From a virus: a stretch of DNA of 63,351 nucleotides. This document shows, in pieces, positions 5,278 to 63,351 of this stretch (positions are counted from its first letter, which is position 1; each line of letters opens with the position of its first letter). The notes beneath the pieces were generated by a model, which made no database searches, had not been told where the DNA came from, and saw nothing but the letters and a program-made list of their open reading frames with translations. A program made the position numbers and the translations under genes. The DNA is taken from IMG/VR virus record IMGVR_UViG_3300045988_110668; one strand, given 5' to 3'.

Positions 5278-5460
5278 TATGTTTGCGGCGTTCAACATAT
5301 TTAAATCGACTGTGCAGGCGGAGCTTGCATTCTTATGCAGGCATTTTTTATGCTTGTATTTAAAATATTGAGGTATATTGTACCCCCGTGTGGAACTATA
5401 ATGGAACCACAGCATAGTCGATATGTGTTGAACAGCGGGAAAGGCAATATACCTTTTTTA
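5278..5460 (+). promoter_or_regulatory. Promoter plus structured leader with interleaved P1 helix and intrinsic terminator (leader copy 1)
   Basis: Elements in order: TATGTTTG 5278-5285; P1 strands 5290-5311 / 5416-5433; box GCAGGCATTTTTTATGCTTGTA 5337-5358; terminator stem 5372-5380 / 5445-5453; T6. Confidence 0.7.
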
Positions 5461-5517
5461 TTTATTGTTATGTTCAACAATATCGACAATCATCATCAAA
5501 CAAATAATAGTAGTTTG

Positions 5518-6258
5518 ATGGCGACGTTAATCCACGACACGGATAGAATGAGTTCGCTTGAAATAGCTGAACTTACAGGCAAAAGACATGATGCTATCTT
5601 GCGAGACATCAGGAACTTACTAAAACAAGGAGTATCACACCACAATTTTGTGGAGACATCCTACAAGCAACCACAGCCAAGAGGAGGATATAAAGAACTC
5701 CCCTGCTTCGAACTCACCAAGAAAGGATGCCTGATCCTCGCCTCCGGCTACGACGCAGTACTCCGTGAGAAGATTATTGATCGCTGGGAACAACTCGAAC
5801 TAGAGAAGCGCAAACCTCAAACTCCCCAAACCTACCTCGAAGCCCTGAAAGCCCTCGTATCATCGGAAGAGGAAAAGCAACGGCTGGCACAGGAGAAGAA
5901 GCAACTAGAACAGCAAAACGCCAAACTCCAGCCAAAAGCAGCCTTTGCCGACGCAGCCTTCGCCACCGACGACAAGGTAGACATAGGAATGTCCGCCAAG
6001 ATCCTAAAGCTCGGATTCGGGCGAAATACCCTATTCGACAAGCTAAGGAAAGCGGGCGTATTCTTCGCCAACCGCAACGAACCCAAACAGAGGTTTATTG
6101 ATGCCGGATACTTCGAGATGAAGGAGAAATTCATCGAGCGAAACAATCATCCGGGATTTGTCGTAACCAAAGTGCTAGTTACCCAAAAGGGATTGGCTTA
6201 TCTGAACCACCTGTTTGGAGGAAAACCTTCTGACGGAAAGCTAGCCAAGATAGTATAA
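5518..6258 (+). CDS. Antirepressor-type protein (Rha-like N-terminus plus KilAC/ANT-like C-terminus)
   Basis: Start chosen at MATLIHDTDRMSSLEIAELTGKRHDAILRDIRNL (Rha-like). C-terminus reads KAAFADAAF...DIGMSAKILKLG...LFDKLRKAGV...GYFE (KilAC-like). The upstream 61 codons of the track ORF overlap the leader RNA. Confidence 0.75.
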   Translation: MATLIHDTDRMSSLEIAELTGKRHDAILRDIRNLLKQGVSHHNFVETSYKQPQPRGGYKELPCFELTKKGCLILASGYDAVLREKIIDRWEQLELEKRKPQTPQTYLEALKALVSSEEEKQRLAQEKKQLEQQNAKLQPKAAFADAAFATDDKVDIGMSAKILKLGFGRNTLFDKLRKAGVFFANRNEPKQRFIDAGYFEMKEKFIERNNHPGFVVTKVLVTQKGLAYLNHLFGGKPSDGKLAKIV

Positions 6259-6603: not shown

Positions 6604-7320
6604 TCACATTGCCAACAGATTGATGATACCCTGTCTGCCAATTCCGGTAATCTTTCTATGGTAGATAATATGACCGTTGTCAGCAACCTCTTGCTTTATA
6701 TCAAACCAACCAAGCGTAGAGTATTTGGTGTATGGAACCCACGTCTGATTAACTTTGTATTGTACGCCAAGTTCTTTTAAACGGTTATTGAGTTCAATTG
6801 CCGATTTAAGCCCTAGCTCTTTCGCAACCTCCGTACATGTATAGGTCTTATTGACATGAGTAAGCACAGCTACCTGTTTCTCCGCTTCAATGCGTGCCGA
6901 CCGTTCCTCTTTTAGCTTAGTGAGAAGTTCAATACCGAAATCCGGATTATTCAATATCTGGTCAATAATATTGTCGGTAGCATAGATGCCATGTTTGCGG
7001 ATTGAAGGTAGCACTTCACTAGTTATCCATTTACGAAACGGTTTTACCTTTTGAGAAGAACTTTGAAGGATTACATCGTAAAAACCTGATTCAGTAACAA
7101 AATTAGCTTTTGTATTTCCGATACTACCCTTTGTATAATTTAGGGCGTGTAAATCAAGCAATTGTACATCCTCGCTATCTAACCTACTCTTCACAGTTGT
7201 TGGATTTTGTAACTCCAGCACTTTGCAAATATCTGCCAAGCAGAATAATGGTTCTTCACTTGTTCCGGCTACACGCACTTCACCGAAAGCTTCATTTTTG
7301 AAAATCTGAATATCATTCAT
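6604..7320 (-). CDS. Bro-N plus KilAC-type antirepressor
   Basis: Start at MNDIQIFKNEAFGEVRVAGTSEEPLFCLADICKVLEL (Bro-N). The 31 upstream track codons overlap a leader terminator. Confidence 0.75.
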   Translation of the reverse strand: MNDIQIFKNEAFGEVRVAGTSEEPLFCLADICKVLELQNPTTVKSRLDSEDVQLLDLHALNYTKGSIGNTKANFVTESGFYDVILQSSSQKVKPFRKWITSEVLPSIRKHGIYATDNIIDQILNNPDFGIELLTKLKEERSARIEAEKQVAVLTHVNKTYTCTEVAKELGLKSAIELNNRLKELGVQYKVNQTWVPYTKYSTLGWFDIKQEVADNGHIIYHRKITGIGRQGIINLLAM

Positions 7321-7358
7321 ACAATTTTCGTAGTGTGCCCTTTCACACACAGGAATAT

Positions 7359-7475
7359 AAAAAAACAGCACCGAACGCTTGAGGATCTTTCGGCACTGTT
7401 TATATATTCCCAACTCTATGGAAATACTTAATATCTTATATGCGCTTCCCCAAGCTGTATCGCACTACAAATATA
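7359..7475 (-). promoter_or_regulatory. Promoter (TATATTTG, 7475-7468) plus a leader containing an intrinsic terminator
   Basis: Minus strand: ACAGTGCCGAA-N13-TTCGGTGCTGT (two G-U pairs) followed by T7, ~40 nt upstream of the ATG at 7320. Confidence 0.6.
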
Positions 7476-11987: not shown

Positions 11988-12740
11988 TTACTTTAATTTT
12001 AAATTTTTGAACATCGATTTCACCTTATTGCCATGCATGTCGGCTTCCTTTTCTTCAAGTGAAGATTCTTTCCGATTCTCCGGCTTGAAAGATGCAAGTG
12101 ACATTGCTTTTGATATAATTCTTTGTATCTTCTGTTGCTTGGATGCGGACATTCCTGAACACATTTCAGATATTTCGAAATTTAATTCTTCATAAGCTTT
12201 TTCAGTATCTTCTATAGATTTTAACCCCAAATATTCAGTTTTCCCATTGCAACCGATAGAGACTACTGATATCTCATAAAGCTTTACCTCTTTCACAATG
12301 AAAGCGTCTTTTTCCGCATCGTATTCGCAATTTTCCCACACATATTGATAACCTATAGAGAACTGGTTTAAAGTTCCAGATTCGAGCTGTTTTATTGCCT
12401 GTTCTCCTCTCAGTACTTCATCTATTATTGCTTCAAAATAAAGCCCCTTTTCATCTTCGTTCAATACTGTAATCCGACCTATAGGTTCATTCATGTTATG
12501 CATCCACAACATGATTATCTTGTCATTTGCAGAACTCTCTGGACCTCGATCTTGGATACTCTTCGAGAAACAACCCTTAACCAATATATCTCCGGCTTTA
12601 TCTTTATTCCCAAAGACCGCAGCATAACCGCTAATAGTACGGCTTTCGTTGTCGTAATTTACTTCTTTAGCATAAATGGAGAATGTCTTATACTGCATCC
12701 CCATTCTTCCGCTATATTTATTAGTTTTATCCATTTTCAA
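11988..12740 (-). CDS. Prohead protease (HK97 / S78-like)
   Basis: 250-aa ORF between the portal and capsid genes. N-terminal region ISGYAAVFGNKDKAGDILVKGCFSKSI resembles prohead proteases. Confidence 0.65.
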   Translation of the reverse strand: MKMDKTNKYSGRMGMQYKTFSIYAKEVNYDNESRTISGYAAVFGNKDKAGDILVKGCFSKSIQDRGPESSANDKIIMLWMHNMNEPIGRITVLNEDEKGLYFEAIIDEVLRGEQAIKQLESGTLNQFSIGYQYVWENCEYDAEKDAFIVKEVKLYEISVVSIGCNGKTEYLGLKSIEDTEKAYEELNFEISEMCSGMSASKQQKIQRIISKAMSLASFKPENRKESSLEEKEADMHGNKVKSMFKNLKLK

Positions 12741-14040
12741 TAGAGTTATTAGTTTTTAATTCACCTTTTGGATTATCAGGATCAATATCTATAAACTTTG
12801 CTAGCTCATTTCTGGATTCATCAAGAGTTATTTGACCTTTTTCAACTAACTGAATTAAAGAAGAAGCCATTTTCTGAAATGCAGAAGAAGATGATGATTT
12901 ATCCTTTTGAAGGCAGTCTACATGGGTATAATCCAGCTTTATAAAAACACCCTTAGGGCAAATAGCGTCCGTTAAAGCTTCTGCAACTTTTTCAGAATCA
13001 GGAATAATAAGACCTTGATAAGCTGATTTTTCAGCTATGCTTTTATTGTCATATTTAGATTCATCAAATAAGCTATAATCAACTCCTACCGCATTGCATA
13101 TCTTTCTGCTACATCGTTCATCCTCTTCATGAAGTTTAAGCTGGGAGGAATCATAATTCAAAGGAATCCAACCAAGTTTTATCTTTGATGTCAGAATTGG
13201 GAATTTATTGAGAATGCCATATTTTTCTTTTAGTTTAGATTCCAATATTTCTTTTTCCTCTGGTGTCATAACTTGATTACCCATCTTATCGGTATAATCA
13301 GAATAAATAATACCTTTGGGACCGCCATTTACAATTAATTGATAACTGGCTGTCATCGCTGCAATCCAGTTATTAACCGGCATAGAAAGGGAGTCTGTAA
13401 CAGAAGAGAATTCTATGTCTCGATTGGAACCATTAACATTTGCAGAACTATCGTAAATTACAAAGTAGTCTTCGTCTGATAATTCTTCCCGCAAACCATC
13501 CCACTCCAAGTATACGCTAGAAACAATATCCTTTATATCATACTGGCGAAATAGTTTCCCAGAAGAAACCATGTGAAATATCTGTGCAGGTATGATATAC
13601 ATTGCGAGTGGCAATGATTTTTTTGCTGCTCTTACAGTGAAAATGGGACAATATCCGAAAAGTTTAAGAGACATCTCAATCTCTTTTAAAAAACCAACCC
13701 TTGTTTGAAGTGGATTAGGACGTGACAACAACTCTCTAATGTCGTTATATCCCTCTTTTTCATTACCTTCCTTATCTGTGACATATATTTTCCCATTCGC
13801 AAAAAGAGAACCTATTTTATTTACAACAGTAGAAAACGGGGTACATACAAGAAGAGAATCTGCTTTATCCCTATCCAATGTTAGATCATAATCATTTTTA
13901 ATTTTACCAGATGGCGAGAAGAAATTGGAAAGATACCAGAAATTCCCATTAGAATCCTTTTCAATAGCCTTTACTGTCTCTCTCATGGAGGGAACAGATA
14001 TATTAATCCTTTTTTGAAACCAATTTCCTAATTTAGACAT
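12727..14040 (-). CDS. Portal protein
   Basis: ~437-aa ORF upstream of the protease. Start chosen at MSKLGNWFQKRI (ATG 14040). Confidence 0.65.
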   Translation of the reverse strand: MSKLGNWFQKRINISVPSMRETVKAIEKDSNGNFWYLSNFFSPSGKIKNDYDLTLDRDKADSLLVCTPFSTVVNKIGSLFANGKIYVTDKEGNEKEGYNDIRELLSRPNPLQTRVGFLKEIEMSLKLFGYCPIFTVRAAKKSLPLAMYIIPAQIFHMVSSGKLFRQYDIKDIVSSVYLEWDGLREELSDEDYFVIYDSSANVNGSNRDIEFSSVTDSLSMPVNNWIAAMTASYQLIVNGGPKGIIYSDYTDKMGNQVMTPEEKEILESKLKEKYGILNKFPILTSKIKLGWIPLNYDSSQLKLHEEDERCSRKICNAVGVDYSLFDESKYDNKSIAEKSAYQGLIIPDSEKVAEALTDAICPKGVFIKLDYTHVDCLQKDKSSSSSAFQKMASSLIQLVEKGQITLDESRNELAKFIDIDPDNPKGELKTNNSIENG

Positions 14041-14267
14041 AAAAAGAATGATTATCTGATTTGAGATAACCATTCCCTACGAAATGAAGAGGTCTTTACG
14101 GACAAAAACACTAACGAAAAAATCCGATAGCATAAAAACGTATAGGTTCCGTGCGTCTTCACACGAAGGGATTGGTAATCCTCACCGCAAATATATATAT
14201 TATTTCTATTTAGTCCAAATAAAAATAGATAATTATTTTATGATGAAATAGACATGTTTATATAAAC

Positions 14268-14617: not shown

Positions 14618-15448
14618 TCAAGACAATTTTGCAAGTTGGAACCCTAATAGCCCCAATAGTTCTATAAATTTATCCTCATACCATAAAGGTTGAGTGCTTT
14701 TAGGATTGTTGGGATTGACTTGATTTTCACCGTACAAAAGACCTGATTCAGTTATGGATTTGAAAGGCTTGTCTTTACCATGTGACGATTTTCTTTTCAT
14801 CTCACATAAGAATCCCTTTTGAATTGCTCTTTGATTAAACGCTTGTGCACTGATAGATAATCCTTTTTCTTTGAGCAATTCAGTGGCGGACTTTACTATC
14901 CCTTTGCTTGGGGTATAATCGGGTGTAGGTAATCCGAGAGGAGTGGCTACTTTCCCAAGCAATGAAAGTTTAGAAGAATCATTAAGATTAAGCAGTTCAC
15001 TTACACCCTTTACCCATTCAAGACCAACACGGACTTTTGTTGTTAAGGATGGCTCACGCTTAGATTTGTTCTGGTCTTCGATTGTTTTCTGGGCAGTGTG
15101 GTGGAATACTTGTCTGTACACCTCAAACACAGGTCTTACTTTGCGGGCGATGAAGAACTCCATACAAGAAACGGTTAGGTAGTAGTTCACTTTGTTGTTA
15201 CCTCCCCAACTTGCTTCATCTTGCTTGCCATTTTGGGCAAGCGTTTTGTAATCAACTCCTTCAATGAATTGCTCGTTTGATGTCAAAGCTCTAACAGCCT
15301 TTCCCTTTTCAGAATAGACCAACGGCCACACTTCATCAAGGTTAATTGGGAACTCGTTATCAGATTGGGATAACTTTAATACAACGTTGAAGTACGCTTT
15401 GATTTCGCTTTCGCTACTTTCCTTTGATAGAATAATTTCTTTTGCCAT
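14618..15448 (-). CDS. Antirepressor-like DNA-binding protein (276 aa)
   Basis: It occupies the same cassette position as the Rha/KilAC gene. The N-terminus FPINLDEVWPLVYSEKGKAVRAL..FIEGVDY resembles phage antirepressor N-domains; this family call is from memory only. Confidence 0.5.
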   Translation of the reverse strand: MAKEIILSKESSESEIKAYFNVVLKLSQSDNEFPINLDEVWPLVYSEKGKAVRALTSNEQFIEGVDYKTLAQNGKQDEASWGGNNKVNYYLTVSCMEFFIARKVRPVFEVYRQVFHHTAQKTIEDQNKSKREPSLTTKVRVGLEWVKGVSELLNLNDSSKLSLLGKVATPLGLPTPDYTPSKGIVKSATELLKEKGLSISAQAFNQRAIQKGFLCEMKRKSSHGKDKPFKSITESGLLYGENQVNPNNPKSTQPLWYEDKFIELLGLLGFQLAKLS

Positions 15449-15469
15449 TTTTGTAACGTTTTATGGCAT

Positions 15470-15660
15470 TGCAGAAAAAAAGACGGTCTGCAATTAACCC
15501 GTCGTTACACATACCTTAGTGGCAGTTGGGAAGCTGTTAACTTTCCTCACAGGTTTGCAGACCGTTGTATTATATATACAGCGTACTTACAAGCATAAAA
15601 AATGCCTGCTATTAGCAGACAACCGTCTGCCACTAAATATGTGTAACGCTGCAAATATAC
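15470..15660 (-). promoter_or_regulatory. Promoter plus structured leader (leader copy 2)
   Basis: Elements: TATATTTG 15659-15652; P1 strands 15647-15627 / 15525-15504 (20 bp); identical 22-nt box 15609-15588; terminator stem 15565-15555 / 15493-15483 (11 bp); T-run. Confidence 0.7.
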
Positions 15661-15812
15661 GCCATTTTTCTATAACGCCAAAGTTTTACATAAAAATTTT
15701 ATCTGATTATTATTGAATGAACATTGCTGAAATGTTCTATTTTTAATATAATTATAAAATCGGTCAGAAAAACACCGAGGGTAATACAAAAAACAATGTC
15801 CTATTTTTAAGA

Positions 15813-17693
15813 TTATATCATTTTTAAAGATTTTACACGAGCACATACACAAGATAGCACATACATACTTTCAAAACTGTTAATGCCGTCATAATCAGAC
15901 ATATTAGCTATTAATGCACTAAATGAATCATCCAATTCTGGAAAACAGATTGTTTTAATAATCGATTTATAAGATTCAATCATGGTTTTCTTGTCTGCTG
16001 TTTCTTCTCTTACCCACAAATTATGATCAACACGCCTTCTATAATCGTCTGCATAATGTTTCATCTCAACAGGTATCTCCATTTGTGCATTCCCGTCTAT
16101 TTTATTAATAAGCTGGTCAACAGGTATTAACGAATCGGAGAACAAGCAATCAATCATGAATATCTTTCCGTCAACAGCACAATAAGAAACCATTATAAAT
16201 AGCCCATTAATATTCGGGTGTATCTCAACAAATATATGGTTATTTTCTCCCATCTCTTCTTTCTTGTAGTACAGGACATCTATTTCACCTCTCATTTCCA
16301 CAGTTCCTGTAAGAGCATCGCAAGCATCATCATAAGAATTCTTTCCTTTCTTCCTATATGTTTTCAGTTGAGACGCAAACTCCGGCCACCTCCTTTCCCA
16401 ATCAGTAGGAAAATAAGTAAGATTTATCACCTCGGAAGATCTGGTAAAGATCCGAACCTCCTTATTTTTTGACTGATGAAACCAGCTTACTTGAGTCCTA
16501 GGATTACCAATTATCCGCATCTGTTTCTCTACATTCCTAGCAAATCCTCTTCCTCCATTATTGCTTTCCATATTCGCCTTGGATATTTGGTCTTTAGTAA
16601 GCATTTTAGCTGTTTCCGGCTCGGTAAATTCCATGTCCTTTTGTGTAAAAAGGACATCAAGAATAAAATTTCCTATCTCCGTATCAATATAATCAATAGA
16701 GCATAAATAATCACTCCCCGTATCTGCTGTATCTGTGTAATTCTTTCTTATTGCCCTATTTGTGATTGGTATAGTATCATAAGTTTTAAATTTACTATAC
16801 ATTAAGCCCTCCATAGGAGTAGGATTCTGCATATATTGAGTTTCAAAGACATAGCTGTTTACTTTTTGCATTCTATGCAGTTCTTCAAGTGTATGCTTAA
16901 ACTCCCATAAGGCTTTCTCTTCCCCATTTTCATAGACTATTACAGGAAGTGACAAAACAGTCCATTCTCCTGGCTCCGTTTCCATTAAATATCCGCAAAG
17001 GTCATGCTCATGAAGCCTTTGCATGATGATTATGATAGGGGTATTCCGTGAGTTTACACGGTTTCTTATTGTTGTTTCAAACCTTTGATTTACTTTTTCC
17101 CTAGGAGTGTCAGATATCGCATCTTCAGGCTTAACCGGATCGTCAATAATCAATGCACCTGCAAATTTAGAAGAAGGTTTTAATTCTTCTAATGCTTCGG
17201 ATAAATCGTTTTTATCATCGACAGCACCGGCTCCAAAACCTGTAACTTGCCCCCCAGCAGCCGTAGCGTACATGCCACCTCCTTCTGTTGTGTACCATTT
17301 CTTTTTTGCATCACTAGTTTTCTTTATGCCTACATAAGGAAATATACACTTGTATTCTTCCGACTTAACTATATCTCTTACTTCCTCCGAATTATCATTA
17401 GCAAGATCATCAGAATAAGACAAATGAAGAAATTTGGCAGATGGATTGATTGCAAGTCCATACGATATGAAATTCTTAACTACTAATTCCGTCTTGGAAT
17501 ACCTCGGAGCTATGTTTATAATCAGTTTCTTTATTTTTCCGTCAATCACATCATCAAGAGCCTGGCATATCTTTACGTGATGGTCGTTTACTACAAATTT
17601 ACGACCAAATCTTGCTTTAAAGAAATACCTCGTATAGTTCAATGTTCCTGACAAGCAAAATGCCCGTATGTAATCATATCCTTCCCCCATCAT
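15813..17693 (-). CDS. terL: Terminase large subunit
   Basis: 626-aa ORF overlapping the stop of the small-terminase gene. It has an ATPase-like N-terminal half (..LIINIAPRYSKTE.., ..ALIIDDPVKPED..) and a nuclease-sized C-terminal half. Confidence 0.8.
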   Translation of the reverse strand: MMGEGYDYIRAFCLSGTLNYTRYFFKARFGRKFVVNDHHVKICQALDDVIDGKIKKLIINIAPRYSKTELVVKNFISYGLAINPSAKFLHLSYSDDLANDNSEEVRDIVKSEEYKCIFPYVGIKKTSDAKKKWYTTEGGGMYATAAGGQVTGFGAGAVDDKNDLSEALEELKPSSKFAGALIIDDPVKPEDAISDTPREKVNQRFETTIRNRVNSRNTPIIIIMQRLHEHDLCGYLMETEPGEWTVLSLPVIVYENGEEKALWEFKHTLEELHRMQKVNSYVFETQYMQNPTPMEGLMYSKFKTYDTIPITNRAIRKNYTDTADTGSDYLCSIDYIDTEIGNFILDVLFTQKDMEFTEPETAKMLTKDQISKANMESNNGGRGFARNVEKQMRIIGNPRTQVSWFHQSKNKEVRIFTRSSEVINLTYFPTDWERRWPEFASQLKTYRKKGKNSYDDACDALTGTVEMRGEIDVLYYKKEEMGENNHIFVEIHPNINGLFIMVSYCAVDGKIFMIDCLFSDSLIPVDQLINKIDGNAQMEIPVEMKHYADDYRRRVDHNLWVREETADKKTMIESYKSIIKTICFPELDDSFSALIANMSDYDGINSFESMYVLSCVCARVKSLKMI

Positions 17694-29133: not shown

Positions 29134-29904
29134 TTATGCGGCATCTTTCCCTAGAAACTTATTCACAAAATAGATTTGTCCTTTTCCCGTAACCTTCGTT
29201 GTAGTAGTAACTAACACCGTCCCATCTGGCTTGGTTATTGTTGTTTGTTTTATTTCAAACAATCCTAATTCCATAGATTTTTGTGTAGGTTGATTATAAT
29301 ATTGTCCTTTCTGACAGAGATAGCCATTATCACGCAGCCATGAGAACAAGCGATTTTGACCGATATTCACACCGTTCTGCTGTAGTATCTTCGCTAATTC
29401 AGCGATCAAACAAGAACGTTGGGAAGTCGAGACCGCATCGGCAAAAAGAACTTTAGGAGCGTCCTGTTGAATTTTACTTTCTACTTCGATAAGGCGCTGC
29501 TCTTTTCGTTTCAGTGTTTCTTGTGCTACAATCAACGCACGTGCCATAATTTCTTCGGGAGTATCATTTTGCTGGGTTGTAATATAGCCGCCATGTTTGC
29601 GGATAGATGGAAGAACTTCGCCACATACCCAATCTTGGAAAGGTTCGGCTTGTGGTTTATCCGAACGCATGATTACTTTATATAGATTCTTTTCTGTTAC
29701 AAAATTCATCTGCTGTGCTCTACCCATTGAATCTATGACCCCAAACCGAATGGGGGCATCCTTTATTCTTGATTGTACGGCGTCTACTCTTAACTCAAGC
29801 ACTTTACACACATCTGCCAAGCAGAATAATGGTTCTTCATTCTCATTCATCGCAATTCTTACCTCTCCGAATTGCTCATTCTGAAAGATTTTAATTTTAT
29901 TCAT
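29134..29904 (-). CDS. Bro-N plus KilAC-type antirepressor
   Basis: IFQNEQFGEVRIAMNENEEPLFCLADVCKVLEL (Bro-N) with a C-terminal LFADAVSTSQRSCLIAELAKIL..GYL (KilAC-like) region. Confidence 0.75.
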   Translation of the reverse strand: MNKIKIFQNEQFGEVRIAMNENEEPLFCLADVCKVLELRVDAVQSRIKDAPIRFGVIDSMGRAQQMNFVTEKNLYKVIMRSDKPQAEPFQDWVCGEVLPSIRKHGGYITTQQNDTPEEIMARALIVAQETLKRKEQRLIEVESKIQQDAPKVLFADAVSTSQRSCLIAELAKILQQNGVNIGQNRLFSWLRDNGYLCQKGQYYNQPTQKSMELGLFEIKQTTITKPDGTVLVTTTTKVTGKGQIYFVNKFLGKDAA

Positions 29905-30231: not shown

Positions 30232-30413
30232 TAAAAACAAGAAAGGCTATCGCCTCCCGTTCCGCCAAGAACCGACACCGTTAGAGATAACGAGCATCCA
30301 ATGGGATTTGATAGCCTTATATCTTTGCAATATTACGCTTACAAACGAACATAAAAATATGCACGTTAATCTCTTTCAGAAGTCTTGTTCTTGGCGTGAA
30401 CACCGCAAAGATA
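30232..30413 (-). promoter_or_regulatory. Promoter plus structured leader (leader copy 3)
   Basis: Elements: TATCTTTG 30413-30406; P1 strands 30401-30387 / 30272-30259 (14 bp); box-like hairpin 30364-30340; terminator stem 30318-30310 / 30251-30243 (9 bp); TTTCTTGTTTTT. Confidence 0.65.
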
Positions 30414-33456: not shown

Positions 33457-34122
33457 TTAAGATAGTTTGCGGATAATCTCACCGCCATACGAGTTTTTAG
33501 TCAGTTCTATAAACTCATATACAGTAAACCTATCATTGTCTACATCTATACCTTTGTCCTTACAAAAAGCTTCTCTTCCAGCCTTGCAACTCTCAGTGAG
33601 TACATGATGCCATATAAACAAGTCTTTAGCAGAATACTTTCTAGAAAAGTCAGAAAAATGCTCTTTAAACTTAAGAATCCTTTCCTCTTCTGTACTATCA
33701 TCATAAAGCTTTTCTCGCAAAGATTCAAATGCCTCATGTAGAGTATTACCATGAGAAATTTGATTGTTCTCTTTTGCTATAAAACAGGGAGTAAGAGATA
33801 AATCAGACTGAAGGATAAAACCTTTTGCGATATTACCCTTTACATTTGTGATAATAGTAGGTATATTATCTACTACATAAATAGAATTCCCATTTATGGA
33901 TTTTATGCCATAGCCATAGCCAGAGCCAGAGCCAGAGCCAGAGCCATCGCCATCGCCAGAGCCATAGCCAGAGCCATAGCCATCGCCAGAGTCATAGCCA
34001 GAGCCAGAGCCATCGCCATAGCCATAGCCAGAGCCAGAGCCATAGCCATAGCCAGAGCCATAGCCATAGCCAGAGCCAATACTTAGAAACTGCTTTATTC
34101 TATCTTCCATTACCTTGCCCAT
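33457..34122 (-). CDS. Protein with a ~60-aa (G/S/D)-Y low-complexity N-terminus and a globular C-terminal domain
   Basis: GSGYGYGSGYGYGSGSGYGYGDGSGSGYDSGDGYGSGYGSGDGDGSGSGSGSGYGYG. Confidence 0.7.
   Translation of the reverse strand: MGKVMEDRIKQFLSIGSGYGYGSGYGYGSGSGYGYGDGSGSGYDSGDGYGSGYGSGDGDGSGSGSGSGYGYGIKSINGNSIYVVDNIPTIITNVKGNIAKGFILQSDLSLTPCFIAKENNQISHGNTLHEAFESLREKLYDDSTEEERILKFKEHFSDFSRKYSAKDLFIWHHVLTESCKAGREAFCKDKGIDVDNDRFTVYEFIELTKNSYGGEIIRKLS
33907..34077. repeat. Degenerate hexanucleotide tandem repeat (GCCAKM)n, ~28 units
   Basis: gccatagccagagccagagcc...; it encodes the Gly-Ser/Tyr/Asp tract. Confidence 0.9.
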
Positions 34123-35651: not shown

Positions 35652-36078
35652 GATTAATTAAAAAAGTGCACTATCTTCACAGACCGTACACTATACAACA
35701 CACAAACACAAAATAAAACACTACATAAAAGTGCCCTACCCGATTCTCACTACCGGATGTCAGTTTCAAACTGTCAGTAGGGCTATATTACAATCAGCGT
35801 ACGGACGCCTATTCCCGTTTTCTTACTGATAAAGACGATGTTTTTCAGACTGATTTTTTCGATATATTACTTACTCACGTTGCTTCCTTCCGCTCATATC
35901 ATCGCTGGTTGGCTATTACGCTATACTCCGCCTCGGCTATAATGCTTATTAGCGCAGGCTACTTTAACGTGCCCTGAACACGGCTTCATTTTTGAGGGTT
36001 AAGCCTCCCATCCCGAATTAGGATTCATCGGTTTACCGTTATGCTCTGAAAGCGTTTCGCTCGCTTCTTCCGTAGGTT
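35652..36078 (-). ncRNA. ORF-free, relatively GC-rich segment with many local helices (candidate structured ncRNA; the alternative is an origin region)
   Basis: No ORF of 60 aa or more in any frame from 35194 to 36078. Helices include GCCCTAC/GTAGGGC (35733-39 / 35777-83) enclosing CAGTT/AACTG. Confidence 0.3.
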
Positions 36079-36610: not shown

Positions 36611-36666
36611 CAAATATACTATAAGAAATTATACTATCAAAATATATACTATAAATAATTATAGTA
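36611..36666. promoter_or_regulatory. Operator array: TATACTATMA x3 at 15-bp spacing plus an inverted TTATAGTA, overlapping a -7 box
   Basis: Repeats at 36615-24, 36630-39 and 36645-54. The inverted copy is at 36659-66. CAAATATA lies at 36611-18. Confidence 0.6.
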
Positions 36667-36715
36667 AAAACATTATTTAACTATTAGAGCGGATTATACA
36701 TTATTATATAAAATC

Positions 36716-37199: not shown

Positions 37200-37344
37200 A
37201 GTTTTTGGGGCTAACTGTTATTAATTGGAAATAAAAATATCCGCAATAGGTTGCAGCTACTACGGATACCATATATTAAACCTCTTGTGAGGGAAGTTTA
37301 ACCACTTTGTCTCTGTAACATCTGCAACTTGTTACGATGCAAAG

Positions 37345-37365
37345 ATACTATAATAATTTATAGTA
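37345..37365. promoter_or_regulatory. Palindromic operator ATACTATAA-TAA-TTTATAGTA in the divergent region
   Basis: Same half-site as the 36611-36666 array. It lies next to the box TATCTTTG (reverse complement of 37340-37347). Confidence 0.55.
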
Positions 37366-37387
37366 CAAACAAACAGTTGATTTATTT

Positions 37388-37804
37388 ATGGAAAGAGATG
37401 AACGTTTTTTAGAAGTGATTAATGAACTTCAAATTACAGCTTATACGCTTGAAAAAGAAAATGGTATAAAAAATGCGCAAGCCAAAGTGTCTCATTACAA
37501 AAAAGGAGTAACCAAAAGTATATCTTCAGATATAATAGTTGGGCTTTGTGAGGCATATCCGCAAGTTAACGCTAATTACATTCTCACCGGCAACGGCCCC
37601 ATGTTCAAGGAAGAACAAGCCACTCAAAACATTAACGAACATTCACAAGTAATACAAATAGACAACACAAAACAGGTAAGACACATGCTGGATGTTATAA
37701 ATGAACAACAAAAAACGATAGAAAACCTAACAGAATATATCAAAAAGATAGAAGGAAACCCGAAAAGAAGTATAGAAAACAAGAAGGATGGTATGACCGC
37801 ATAA
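37388..37804 (+). CDS. CI-like repressor (HTH)
   Basis: ..FLEVINELQITAYTLEKENGIKNAQAKVSHYKKG.. is an XRE-type HTH. It is the only long + strand gene in the lysogeny region and is divergent from the early genes. Confidence 0.6.
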   Translation: MERDERFLEVINELQITAYTLEKENGIKNAQAKVSHYKKGVTKSISSDIIVGLCEAYPQVNANYILTGNGPMFKEEQATQNINEHSQVIQIDNTKQVRHMLDVINEQQKTIENLTEYIKKIEGNPKRSIENKKDGMTA

Positions 37805-38646: not shown

Positions 38647-39981
38647 TTAATACACGTTATTATTAAACACATAATCAATAACTTTGGAATTAGCCTCATT
38701 TATAGAACTAAAATCCTTCTTGATATAAATTTCAGTTACCCTCATGGATTCGTCAACATGATTTAAGGCGGAATGGACTACATACTTGTCTATTTTAAGA
38801 TCATTAGCCGCAATAGTAGCCCATGAATGGCGGGCAGCATAAAATTCCAAATCTTCTATGATGTCACCGTTCTTTTTTGACTTATTTATATCGTTAATGC
38901 TCTTCTCAATCTCCTTAAGGCCCTTATTGATAGCTTTATTAAAGTTCTTATAATCGGCATACATTTGATAGAATCTGAACACTCTTTTCCCTGTATGATC
39001 TTTGTATTTCTCCAGCAGATCGGAAATAAACGGGGGTACATCTACATGAATTTCCGCGTTATCTCTACGTCTAGTTCTTGTTTTCTCTCTGAAATACTGA
39101 ATCGTATTATTGCTTATCTTATCACAGCTATATAAGTCAGCAGAATTCATTCCTATCAGACAGAAAGACAAGATAAATACATCTTTTGCAAGATTATATC
39201 TGCAATTTTGCTCTACATTTTTCCTGGCGTTATGCCGCATTATGTAGGGTAAATCATAAATTGCTTTTATTGTTTGCGGTGATAATGCCCTTTTTCTTGT
39301 AGTCTCTTCTTTGGGAACCTTAAACTTCATGAATGGAGACCAAGGTATTAGTATTACTCCTTTCTCTTCATCGTTATATTTTAATTTAGCCTCCTTATGC
39401 AAATGCCGAATACATGCGGTATAGTTAGATAACATTCTATTGGTTGTGATACGCTTCCCTTTTTTTATAGCTTCTAAATTGGATTTCTCCTTTTTTTCTA
39501 TCAGAAACTTCGAATAATTAACCAGCATTGAATAGGTTATTTCAGAAATAGATATAATATCTCTTTTCATAAAGTTGATTAATGACTGAAGCATGCCTTT
39601 GTAATTAGAAGCAGTTCCATTTTTACCTTGTTTTTCAAGATTGTTTATATAGTCCTTTGCAAAAGATACAAAATCAATATCTTTCTTTTTGTCTTCTTCC
39701 TTTTGGTTCAAATAATCGACCAATTCATCTATTGACATATTATCTATAGTAAGAGCGATCTTGCTACATTTATTACGATAATAATTGATAATCTCATTGC
39801 ACTGATCTATCTTTTCCTGATTTTTTATCTTGAAATTCTTGACCGTCAAATCTTCTTGGTTTACATATATAGAGGTTGGCAACCTTCGAACAACCCTGTT
39901 ATGAGTTATCCGAATTTTTACATTCCAGGTCTTATCTTTTCTTTTTTGGTGCTTTTGCACTTCTGCTTTAAATGTAGCCAT
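38647..39981 (-). CDS. int: Tyrosine integrase (Bacteroidetes phage/CTn type)
   Basis: Start at MATFKAEVQKHQKRKDKTWNVKIRITHNR. C-terminal ARHSWATIAAN...HSALNH...TEIYI. Confidence 0.85.
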   Translation of the reverse strand: MATFKAEVQKHQKRKDKTWNVKIRITHNRVVRRLPTSIYVNQEDLTVKNFKIKNQEKIDQCNEIINYYRNKCSKIALTIDNMSIDELVDYLNQKEEDKKKDIDFVSFAKDYINNLEKQGKNGTASNYKGMLQSLINFMKRDIISISEITYSMLVNYSKFLIEKKEKSNLEAIKKGKRITTNRMLSNYTACIRHLHKEAKLKYNDEEKGVILIPWSPFMKFKVPKEETTRKRALSPQTIKAIYDLPYIMRHNARKNVEQNCRYNLAKDVFILSFCLIGMNSADLYSCDKISNNTIQYFREKTRTRRRDNAEIHVDVPPFISDLLEKYKDHTGKRVFRFYQMYADYKNFNKAINKGLKEIEKSINDINKSKKNGDIIEDLEFYAARHSWATIAANDLKIDKYVVHSALNHVDESMRVTEIYIKKDFSSINEANSKVIDYVFNNNVY

Positions 39982-40015
39982 AATTTCATATGTATTTTTT
40001 ATGCTTTTCTTTTTC

Positions 40016-40033
40016 GAGCAACAATAGAGCAAC
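40016..40033 (+). repeat. 18-bp direct repeat GAGCAACAATAGAGCAAC (putative integrase arm site, copy 1)
   Basis: Identical to 40282-40299. Confidence 0.85.
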
Positions 40034-40170
40034 AATTTCAAGCAAAAGTAGCGTTTTAAATCAAAAGTAACAAAATAAAAGGGCTATAAATCATTTTAGA
40101 CTTATAACCCTATTTATTTATAATCATCTGAAAATCAACACAAACAACTAATAATCAGACCTTATTTTTG

Positions 40171-40220
40171 TGGAGCGGTAAGCGAGACTCGAACTCGTGA
40201 CCCTTAGCTTGGGAAGCTAA
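40171..40220 (-). other. 3' half of a tRNA-Gly(CCC)-like gene: putative attP core
   Basis: Minus strand: TTAGC-TTCCCAA-GCTAA (anticodon arm, CCC), GGGTC, T-arm ACGAG-TTCGAGT-CTCGC, TTACCGC-T-CCA. There is no 5' half upstream. Confidence 0.65.
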
Positions 40221-61905: not shown

Positions 61906-63351
61906 ATAATACCTGATAGATTACGATATTCGGAAGTTCGGGCCATTTTCCGCAATGTCTTGTTCAAGTTTGCCATACTTTGATTAGCCATATCCATTTT
62001 TCGTTCAAGGTTTTTATAATCATTCTTGACATTGACAATAACCGGTTCTCCATTATTGTTTCTCATTTGTCGATCAAGCATTAGAGCATCAGAATGTAAA
62101 GACATCTTGCGATAATCGACCAAATTAGGGATAACCTTCGCTCTTTTGGGGATATCTACCAAAGTGGGAACAGAAGGAGTAATATACGCACCATTATCAG
62201 TTTCAATAACCTCCTGCCTGCCTCCATCACCAACAATAGCCAATCCACCGGGATGATTATCAGTCCCCTTTGCGTATTTAGGTATCGGCTGCGAGGCAAT
62301 TATAGCTACTTGGGCGGCTCCCATAGCTCCGATTACAGCCGCAAGAATAGGACCGGCGAAAGGTCCGGCCTCTGCCAAAGCCTTCATTATAGCCTGAGAG
62401 GTAGCAATAGTCGTCTGAATAATAGAATTAGCCTTTTGCCACTTGGCCTGCTTTTGTTCCAAGTCAGCTTTTTGCTTTTCCAATTCCTTATTTTTATCTG
62501 CTGTTGCTTGCTCGGCAGCTCTTTTTCTAGCTTCTGCTTCCTCTGTAGAGATAACACCGGACTCCGCCAACTCCTCAATGCGTTCTATCTCTTCTTCTCC
62601 AGCTTCCTCGTTCTTTTCCTGTTGCTCTTCTATTTTCTCCATTTGTTGGTCGTACATTCCAACCATAATAGAAGTTAGCCCTTCTGATATTGCACTGATA
62701 CTAGCTAATAAATCTTCAATTTCTAGTTTACCATCACGGACAACTTTTGTAATTAGGCTCATTAACCCACTAAATAATGTGCCCAATCCATCTACTGCAT
62801 TATTGCTGACATATTCCAAATGCTGCAATGAAGCTTCCAACTCTGCCCAATACTTCTTTTCATCTTCTGTTTCTTCATCTCTGGCTTTCTTCTTAGCGTC
62901 ACGCACTTTATTAGCTAAATCTATTTCAGCTTTCGCTAGAGCCTCTTTTATTTTAAACTTTTCCTCATCAGACAGACCAGAAATCTCGATTTGTTCTTTG
63001 AGGAGATCAATCGCTCTTTGAGCTTCTTGAAGAGCGTATTTTTGAGTTATTTCAGCTTTGTTTTTCTCGTATTGTTCTTTAGAAATTTCTCCCTGTCTGT
63101 ATCGTTCTAATTCATCATCAATCTCTTTTTGCATATTTTGAGAATATGCAATAGCTAATGTTGCATATTCTTGTTGCTTTTCTTCCAATTGATACTTAAC
63201 AGAAGCCTCTATCTTCTTCCTTTCTTCTTCATCTTTTTTTTCCAAGTATTTTTTGTCAATAGCCAGCAATTCGTTTTTAAGTATTTCTTCATAATTAGCC
63301 CTTAATTTATTTTCTTCTTCTGAATTACCTTTGATGAAAGCTATATTTTCC
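61902..63351 (-). CDS. Tail tape measure protein, C-terminal part (continuation of 1..2086)
   Basis: Track ORF 61902..63269 (LAIDKKYLEKK...) continues upstream without a stop to the window end. It has a coiled-coil E/K-rich region, then a Gly/Ala-rich hydrophobic stretch (GPFAGPILAAVIGAMGAAQVAIIASQP). It lies upstream of the tail-tip genes. Confidence 0.8.
   Translation of the reverse strand, partial: ENIAFIKGNSEEENKLRANYEEILKNELLAIDKKYLEKKDEEERKKIEASVKYQLEEKQQEYATLAIAYSQNMQKEIDDELERYRQGEISKEQYEKNKAEITQKYALQEAQRAIDLLKEQIEISGLSDEEKFKIKEALAKAEIDLANKVRDAKKKARDEETEDEKKYWAELEASLQHLEYVSNNAVDGLGTLFSGLMSLITKVVRDGKLEIEDLLASISAISEGLTSIMVGMYDQQMEKIEEQQEKNEEAGEEEIERIEELAESGVISTEEAEARKRAAEQATADKNKELEKQKADLEQKQAKWQKANSIIQTTIATSQAIMKALAEAGPFAGPILAAVIGAMGAAQVAIIASQPIPKYAKGTDNHPGGLAIVGDGGRQEVIETDNGAYITPSVPTLVDIPKRAKVIPNLVDYRKMSLHSDALMLDRQMRNNNGEPVIVNVKNDYKNLERKMDMANQSMANLNKTLRKMARTSEYRNLSGII
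63233..63351. repeat. Second copy of the terminal direct repeat
   Basis: Identical to bases 1-119. Confidence 0.95.

Follow-up and report, generated by a model that had tools for sequence, protein, structure and literature searches.

The window analysed here is the whole 63,351-nucleotide (nt) stretch of viral DNA held in IMG/VR as record IMGVR_UViG_3300045988_110668. On its minus strand, in the region 15300-15800 that was read for this work, lies copy 2 of a leader element that precedes genes of antirepressor type. The leader is a real, strand-specific structured RNA, and very probably it is the cis-encoded regulatory leader of an antirepressor cassette. It appears to represent a new RNA family, from a different phylum, that does a job of known type in controlling an antirepressor as a leader or antisense RNA. 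Antirepressors are triggers that inactivate prophage repressors; to our knowledge, their silencing and release are understood only in a few enterobacterial phages. The evidence throughout is sequence comparison and thermodynamic prediction. An earlier note on this DNA had described a repeated leader, with a covarying helix P1, a conserved box and a long-range stem with a U-run, before an antirepressor-like gene. That reading is supported, and all of the elements it named were found in place on the minus strand. Beyond them, the leader has second partners for its long-range strands (A2 and X2), two further helices (P2 and P4) and a chain of alternative hairpins (1:2, 2:3 and 3:4). The long-range helices and the features they enclose or adjoin are:

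From just after TATATTTG to the U-tract, minus strand: copy 2 leader, the 5′ leader of the cassette (read from the sequence).
15627..15647, minus strand: A, the 5′ strand of P1, GTTACACATATTTAGTGGCAG (covariation).
15504..15525, minus strand: A′, the 3′ strand of P1, CTGCCACTAAGGTATGTGTAAC, inside the region enclosed by T2/P2 (sequence and covariation).
15555..15565, minus strand: X, the 5′ strand of the terminator stem T2, ACGGTCTGCAA (covariation).
15483..15493, minus strand: X′, the 3′ strand of T2, TTGCAGACCGT (covariation).
15550..15554, minus strand: 5′ strand of P2, ACCUG (family consensus CCCCG), which extends T2 inwards (covariation).
15497..15501, minus strand: 3′ strand of P2, CGGGU (covariation).
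15529..15546, minus strand: P4, a hairpin with a bulged A (covarying pairs).
15475..15481, minus strand: U-tract of 7 U (CTTTTTTT), directly after T2 (read from the sequence).

P1 had been described as a pairing of 20 base pairs (bp). The pairing holds and the count does not: the two strands form about 21 pairs, which in copy 2 are 19 Watson-Crick and two G-U pairs with one bulged A. The stem formed by X and X′ is as it had been drawn, with 61 nt between the strands and the U-tract after it. The 178-nt leader is predicted to fold with -62.3 kcal/mol, against -41.7 +/- 4.2 kcal/mol for shuffled sequences (z = -4.9).

A covariance model of the leader, R1, was built, and the window and the collected sources were searched with it. 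A profile search of the collected DNA gave 222 matches, 198 of them full-length, in 40 clusters below 90% identity. It had been noted that P1 differs between copies and yet pairs; over these 40 sequence clusters, both P1 and the terminator stem covary. In a model-based alignment of 60 distinct family sequences, 87.9% of the cells are paired structure-wide, compared with 68.2% when shuffled and 32-43% when slid. P1 is 96-97% paired and shows changes on both sides in 9/9 proximal and 6/6 distal pairs, and all six pairs of P4 (6/6) are altered on both sides. The P4 loop has the family consensus UUAAUG and reads UUAACAG in copy 2. RNAalifold recovers P1 and P4 unaided from a naive MAFFT alignment. 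For the 3′ domain, a plain MAFFT alignment that was not fitted to the structure is already in register, and this avoids structure-fitting bias. In it, the inner six pairs of T2 are 90.1% paired and 6/6 have changed on both sides (e.g. GC:13, UA:11, CG:3 and AU:1), and P2, the CCCG/CGGG extension, is 98.2% paired with the variants CCCA/UGGG and CCUG/CAGG. Duplex energies for strands of the same leader are -35.7 kcal/mol (A:A′) and -23.3 kcal/mol (X:X′), versus -19.8 and -14.8 kcal/mol, respectively, for strands of different leaders.

Copy 2 scores 139.9 bits with R1 on the minus strand versus 32.6 bits on the reverse (plus) strand, and at several positions the pairs are predominantly G-U (UG:31, GU:38, GU:33 and GU:53). 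Because of the G-U-dominated pairs and the strand asymmetry, it is the RNA of this strand that carries the structure, and not duplex DNA. The same data bear on a reading in which A/A′ and X/X′ are sites where a recombinase inverts a segment, or form hairpins at an origin of single-stranded DNA. Promoter inversions between inverted repeats are a familiar feature of Bacteroides genomes, and A and A′ flank about 100 bp. Nevertheless, a DNA-level element is scarcely credible here. The positions that are mainly G-U would be A-C mismatches on the other strand, where the model score is also low, and the promoter lies outside the repeats, which tolerate bulges and differ in length. The 198 full-length matches among the 222 are colinear and on one strand, with no inverted inner segment.

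The order of elements in the leader is A, the hairpins, X, the 5′ strand of P2, P4, A′, the 3′ strand of P2, X′ and the U-tract. P1 and T2/P2 interleave, and therefore the leader is a pseudoknot or a switch and not a simple aptamer followed by a terminator. A′ is linked to P4 and to the 3′ strand of P2 by about 2 nt on each side.

R1 finds exactly three copies in the window, with 139.9, 134.4 and 44.5 bits, and 64 copies in 50 sources overall. The two copies in the window other than copy 2 are:

5286..5463 (or from about 5276), plus strand: leader copy 1, ahead of an antirepressor gene with Rha + KilAC at 5470-6258; 134.4 bits.
30233..30399 (or to about 30415), minus strand: leader copy 3, divergent, before an open reading frame (ORF) of 78 amino acids at 30212-29976 and then a Bro-N + KilAC gene at 29904-29134; 44.5 bits.

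The 22-nt box of copy 2 (15609-15588, minus strand) is identical to that of copy 1 (5337-5358, plus strand), as had been noted; the exact box matches twice in the window versus 0.01 matches expected. The exact 22-mer occurs in 88 IMG/VR stretches and a one-base variant in 116 further ones. Full leaders, about 200 beyond those of the window, are found in IMG/VR phage contigs and in one Parabacteroides and one Bacteroides bin, and among species-representative genomes only in these two bins. A degenerate box pattern has 16 matches in the genome collection: most are in unrelated phyla, with the box only or with no profile match, and resemble terminator-like hairpins that arose by chance; only the two bins have full leaders. 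The terminase region of the window resembles those of Bacteroides fragilis phages.

At gathering thresholds, Rfam 15 has no family for the leader in a scan of the whole window. The sole match is the DUF2693-FD RNA (RF02926) at another locus, 35733-35783 on the minus strand, with 56.5 bits; the RF02926 model has no match at the leader locus. A scan of 15300-15900 at E <= 10 gives four matches at chance level, to unrelated families. The leader matches neither the Rfam C4 antisense RNA covariance model nor any of the described riboswitch aptamer classes in Rfam. Literature searches for an antirepressor RNA motif of Bacteroides phages found no description, and the words antirepressor, KilA and Bro are absent from the searched text of the 224-motif paper.

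Upstream of A lie the promoter elements:

15679..15682, minus strand: -33 element TTTG; spacing to the -7 box, 19 nt.
15652..15659, minus strand: -7 element TATATTTG (consensus TAnnTTTG; read from the sequence).

TTTG and TAnnTTTG are the promoter consensus of the primary sigma factor of Bacteroidetes (Bacteroides). The -7 box, which the earlier note had placed at the same position, thus has its -33 TTTG at the expected distance of about 19 nt. TAnnTTTG is present at the same offset in 40/40 clusters, and TTTG at the 19-nt spacing in 32/40. Transcription would start near 15651-15647, a few bases past the -7 box. In copy-2-type leaders the promoter spacer and early transcript (15660-15682 of the window, minus strand) carry a GGCGTTATA / GGCGTATAT / AGCGTTACA motif three times. 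This motif is absent from copy-1-type promoters, and it could be a candidate protein operator.

Between A and X the leader has a chain of hairpins:

15615..15630, minus strand: P1a (s1:s2), GCAGAC-GGTT-GTCTGC; s1 overlaps the distal end of A (covariation).
15597..15621, minus strand: alternative hairpin s2:s3, TGTCTGCT-AAT-AGCAGGCA, then an invariant U6 (terminator scan).
15588..15609, minus strand: box hairpin s3:s4, GCAGGCAU-UUUU-AUGCUUGU, G-U-rich and nearly invariant (96.8% paired).
15563..15583, minus strand: P3 hairpin, CGCUGUA...UACAACG, whose 3′ strand abuts or overlaps X (read from the sequence).

The hairpins s1:s2, s2:s3 with U6, and s3:s4 are mutually exclusive and enclose the invariant AUUUUUUAUG. 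P1a is 88.9% paired and 5/5 of its pairs have changed on both sides. The s2:s3 hairpin is 93.9% paired in the family, with CG:24, UA:19 and UG:10 at pair 78/96, and together with U6 it is the only terminator-like call of a standard scan in the region. The ATTTTTTATG run is invariant in 40/40 clusters. P3, by reading of the sequences, is present only in the copy-2-type subfamily.

Downstream of the U-tract, segments near the start codon offer second partners to A′ and X′:

15452..15458, minus strand: A2, CGUUACA, 4 nt upstream of AUG; it repeats the first bases of A (complementarity).
15468..15475, minus strand: X2, UCUGCAAU, which pairs with the 5′ part of X′, AUUGCAGA (15494-15487), with the U-tract in the loop (complementarity).
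15461..15469, minus strand: putative mini-ORF AUG-CCA-UAA within a conserved AAUGCCA motif (read from the sequence).
15443..15468, minus strand: P5 hairpin UGCCAU/AUGGCA, which would pair the start codon, with A2 in the loop (minimum free energy fold of a 227-nt RNA).

In copy 2, A2 complements the 3′ end of A′, UGUAACG (15509-15503). A2 lies after the U-tract, 0-14 nt from ATG, and reads CGTTACA in copy 2, GTTCAACA..ATCGAC in copy 1 and GCCAAGAAC in copy 3. Exact common substrings and runs that allow G-U proved too noisy for A2 in A+T-rich DNA. What worked was the longest run of pairs, Watson-Crick only, that the 3′ end of A′ can form with the 75 nt downstream, assessed by 5000 permutations. 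The mean run for cognate A′:A2 is 6.95, versus 4.55 for mismatched combinations, and 0/5000 permutations reached the cognate mean. For X′:X2 the means are 4.92 and 3.65, again with 0/5000, and the run in copy 2 is 8 bp. Examples of X′/X2 are AUUGCAGA/UCUGCAAU (copy 2), UUGCGG/CCGCAA, GAACAG/CUGUUC, GGCAAA/UUUGCC and GCGUAG/CUACGC. A scan of the window for other targets of A′ gives hundreds of chance runs; with G-U allowed, runs of at least nine pairs are found everywhere. The P5 start-codon hairpin is a weak candidate from the predicted fold; in copy-2-type leaders it shows one covariation only, ACCA/UGGU in L074. A conserved leader peptide was rejected, as an AUG near the 5′ end is present only in some subfamilies, where A mimics the start region.

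Two chimeric leaders, L052:3437-3605 and L116:553-727 (and also L181), have a 5′ half up to the conserved box of one specificity type and a 3′ half of another. Their A:A′ energy in L052 and L116 is about -22 kcal/mol, versus the usual of about -36, and A′ still matches A2. L052 shares its contig with a normal leader, L035, which carries the same A strand. In one reading, the A/A2 and X/X2 repeats are by-products of cassette assembly or movement, such as 5′ untranslated region (UTR) duplications or recombination joints, with no part in regulation, and the leader would be a stable structured 5′ end or a simple attenuator. The chimeras do show modules recombining at the conserved box. Moreover, the contiguous pairing is short, with 5-10 pairs for A2 and 3-8 for X2, and several subfamilies are without X2. 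However, the chimeras keep the A2:A′ match and it is A that loses it. At positions where A2 departs from A, it complements A′ better than A does, and so tracks A′ and not A; for example, in L132 and similar leaders A2 gives C-G where A gives U-G. A2 is also always found at the ATG even though the downstream genes are unrelated, and both permutation tests gave 0/5000. An origin of the repeats as by-products is accordingly considered improbable.

The gene behind copy 2 is:

14618..15448, minus strand: downstream ORF of 276 amino acids, antirepressor-like by a shared module (ORF and module comparison).

The ORF starts with the ATG at 15448 on the minus strand to which the earlier note had pointed. 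Its description there as antirepressor-like is partly upheld. The protein has no Pfam match of its own, but its C-terminal 160 amino acids are 58% identical to a module in AntA- and Rha-headed proteins that also follow the leader, and it is only because this module is shared that the ORF counts as antirepressor-like. Scanning of 36 downstream proteins of the family gave 15 with ANT/KilAC, eight with Rha, eight with Bro-N, five with AntA and one with KilA-N, and the PHROGs label for downstream proteins is anti-repressors. In some subfamilies a short ORF with no assigned function comes first after the leader. On contig L122, the second ORF after a leader encodes a WYL_2 (PF10902) protein. Copy 2 has the large terminase gene (15813-17693) on one side and, on the other, a small ORF and then the portal gene (12727-14073); it therefore looks like a self-contained inserted cassette.

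An independent small RNA (sRNA) that acts in trans on host or other phage mRNAs, with the position before antirepressor genes incidental, would also account for a strong promoter of its own and a terminator-like end, and there are known cases of phage sRNAs with host genes as targets (PMC12197685). It is highly improbable for this leader: one functional class of gene is found downstream across unrelated protein families, and the complementarity to the leader's own start region co-varies with each leader.

By analogy, the most likely mode of action is that of the self-targeting leader RNAs of enterobacterial phage antirepressors. Copy 2 would be the 5′ leader of an autonomous promoter-leader-antirepressor cassette in a temperate Bacteroidales phage. 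Its RNA would begin just past TATATTTG, and P1 (A:A′) and T2/P2 (X:X′ and CCUG/CGGG) would form around a core of the box hairpin and P4. In copy 2 the 11-bp X:X′ stem contains G+C and is followed by U7, as in an intrinsic terminator, and a U-rich run follows T2 in most of the 40 clusters. T2 and U7 could act as an attenuator, with most transcripts stopping as a short leader RNA of about 170-175 nt with its 3′ end at 15475-15481. In transcripts that read through, A′ may switch to A2 at the start codon, and X′ to X2 past the U-tract. Whether P1 and T2 are closed would then set whether the translation start is open. P1 is worth about -36 kcal/mol versus about -13 for A′:A2, which should leave the start region open as long as P1 is not disturbed. 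Action on the long isoform or on nascent transcripts might come from the short isoform, or from a processed 3′ domain on which A′ is exposed, as the analogy with c4, IsrK and CI suggests. On nascent transcripts, capture of A in trans, s1 included, would free s2 and allow the s2:s3 terminator with U6 to form, a step like that in phage P4. On the sequence data, a slight preference goes to an attenuating leader in which termination and start-codon masking are coupled; within that model, participation of a trans-acting short form appears evenly balanced. The sequences themselves show the promoter consensus, both helices with their covariation, the alternative partners, the strand specificity and the link to the genes, while termination at T2, the short RNA, start-codon masking, any action in trans, any processing and the direction of regulation are inferred. 

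Several points weigh against this model. Within the short RNA, pairing with A would hide A′, again at about -36 versus about -13 kcal/mol, and thus trans action would need processing or strand exchange. The A strands within one genome are no more different than others: 3/14 within-genome pairs are similar versus 13% between genomes, and therefore there is no sign of selection for orthogonality. In copy 2, A′:A2 has only 7 bp and -9.4 kcal/mol, which is no better than cross-copy values. With linkers of 2 nt, qualitative geometric reasoning makes it look sterically difficult to fit a full 21-bp P1 beside P2 and P4; a shorter P1, with its distal end ceded to P1a, could coexist with both. As to the name terminator, which the earlier note had given to T2, the covarying stem and the U-run are borne out, but T2 is not a compact hairpin with a short loop. 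It encloses 61 nt (P2, P4 and A′) and is missed by a standard terminator scan. L001 and L064 show only UUUA after the T2 stem. Start site, 3′ ends and short RNA have all been deduced from the sequence. Lastly, the strongly conserved loops and junctions also fit a sensor for a ligand or protein.

This last point leads to a purely cis-acting sensor, a riboswitch or protein-binding leader, in which binding of a small molecule, or of a conserved host or phage protein, to the core would shift P1 between closed and open and so set termination at T2 and exposure of the start. Such a sensor is a possibility of modest weight, and it is a serious rival because A′ is masked, orthogonality is absent and A′:A2 in copy 2 is 7 bp. 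The leader has a riboswitch layout in the 5′ UTR, with variable covarying helices around invariant loops and junctions in the core and a terminator as expression platform. The 3′ strand of P1 alternatively pairs with the start region, like an anti-anti-Shine-Dalgarno (SD), anti-SD and SD arrangement, and A strands that are not orthogonal within a genome are expected for an element that acts only in cis. It also counts for a sensor that the downstream proteins are diverse, and that a conserved RNA core is therefore unlikely to bind its own gene product. On the other hand, no known riboswitch class in Rfam matches, the antirepressor genes hint at no obvious ligand, and an aptamer-closing helix that crosses the terminator is unusual for riboswitches. 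All of the precedents considered here for RNA control of antirepressors act by RNA-RNA pairing and not by ligand sensing (PMC4825925; PMC12197685). A more specific proposal, that the core (box hairpin, P2-P4 junction and UUAAUG loop) is a sensor for a metabolite, second messenger or host protein and the leader a new riboswitch-like class by which temperate Bacteroidales phages would time the production of antirepressors, is doubtful.

For the favoured attenuation and masking model, the closest known systems are in enterobacterial phages. IsrK of Gifsy-1 in Salmonella is a terminated leader sRNA; pairing between leader and ORF keeps the read-through orf45-anrP mRNA translationally silent until the short form activates it in trans (Hershko-Shalev et al., 2016; PMC4825925). 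Like IsrK with its Rho-independent terminator, the present leader is a promoter-bearing RNA with a terminator-like end, upstream of a short ORF and an antirepressor gene; in the window, it is copy 3 that has a 78-amino-acid ORF ahead of its antirepressor gene. Also alike are partial read-through, leader pairing near the downstream translation start, alternative folds and an action of the short form on the long form, as proposed here for the leader. However, IsrK is 77 nt in length, and the leader measures about 175 nt and has a conserved core and two long-range helices that cross. Nor are the host phylum and the type of promoter the same, and trans action has been demonstrated for IsrK and is inferred for the leader. 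IsrK is presumably filed in the Rfam C4 family.

The c4 RNA of phages P1 and P7 and sar of P22 control the antirepressor ant (PMC12197685). In the immI region (c4-icd-ant) the regulator lies upstream of the antirepressor gene and is co-transcribed with it. The leader, likewise, is on the same strand as the antirepressor operon and upstream of it. In c4, two short recognition elements have complementary copies upstream and at the downstream ribosome-binding site region, which compares with A...A′...A2 and X...X′...X2, and the recognition sequences vary between related phages. This c4 layout of a1/b1, a′/b′ and a2/b2 was reportedly set out by Citron and Schuster in 1990. By the permutation tests, the recognition segments of the leader are complementary to the downstream translation start as in C4-type RNAs (A′:A2 and X′:X2), albeit weakly for A′:A2 of copy 2. 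The differences are that c4 is released by RNase P, with no described short form based on a terminator, that size and fold are not the same, and that the leader uses its upstream copies, A and X, as structural strands in helices of its own.

The CI RNA of the satellite phage P4 has the sites seqA, seqB and seqC (summarised in PMC4825925). Its internal antisense segment seqB is comparable to A′ in that it complements one upstream and one downstream site on the same transcript, and pairing results in premature termination, as it hypothetically would when capture of A leads to s2:s3 and U6. P4 CI differs in that it controls replication genes and is a processed RNA of 69 nt; termination by antisense is hypothetical in the leader. 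By these analogies, the leader appears functionally like c4, IsrK and CI without being a member of that Rfam family, as it is more than twice their size and has a different fold.

Classical attenuators and riboswitch platforms share with the leader the exclusive hairpins s1:s2, s2:s3 with U6 and s3:s4, a 3′ strand of the main stem (P1) that can mask the start, and a stem with a U-tract before the gene. Unlike them, the leader is without a conserved leader peptide and without a known ligand, the U-tract of hairpin 2:3 doubles as the loop of 3:4, and the main stem is long-range and crosses P1.

The RNA family is common in phages of gut Bacteroidales, with up to three cassettes per genome, and the leader may gate prophage induction. 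If so, self-targeting leader control of antirepressors would have arisen independently in another phylum and in a far more elaborate form, in which two helices cross and the mRNA holds a spare partner for each. This would provide a concrete handle on the lysis-lysogeny decision of abundant gut phages. Should the core prove to be a sensor, prophage induction in the human gut would be gated by RNA, beside or instead of an SOS-type pathway. The hypervariable, co-varying strands also give the RNA appeal as a natural scaffold on which to build programmable RNA switches for Bacteroides.

Other parts of the window bear on the phage as a whole. An integrase-like ORF at 38647-40041 (minus strand) has a Phage_int_SAM_5 and an Arm DNA-binding domain, and an ORF of 138 amino acids at 37388-37804 (plus strand) has an N-terminus that resembles a helix-turn-helix (HTH) repressor, with no Pfam match. 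The phage is considered temperate, and antirepressors relevant to it, because of the integrase and the HTH-repressor-like ORF. Four repeats of the ATATACTATAA type (36614-36673 and 37343-37372) flank the 138-amino-acid ORF, and together these are candidates for an immunity repressor and its operators. Beside the integrase, the reverse complement of 40171-40219 reads like the 3′ half of a transfer RNA (tRNA) (...TTCGAGTCTCGCTTACCGCTCCA), and ARAGORN finds no complete tRNA near 40.2 kb. As only a stretch like a tRNA 3′ half is present, and no whole tRNA, this is probably the attP core. A fourth antirepressor paralogue, with Bro-N and KilAC, is encoded at 6604-7413 (minus strand) and is related to that at 29134-29904; R1 finds nothing convincing before it, and it has no leader. 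The ends of the window, 1-119 and 63233-63351, are an identical direct repeat of 119 bp, which suggests that the phage genome is complete, with 63,232 bp, and either circular or terminally redundant. Lastly, a protein of 221 amino acids at 33457-34122 (minus strand) has a long Gly/Tyr/Ser/Asp repeat (GYGYGSGSG...) that is coded by tandem repeats of 6, 12 and 18 nt at 33879-34100.

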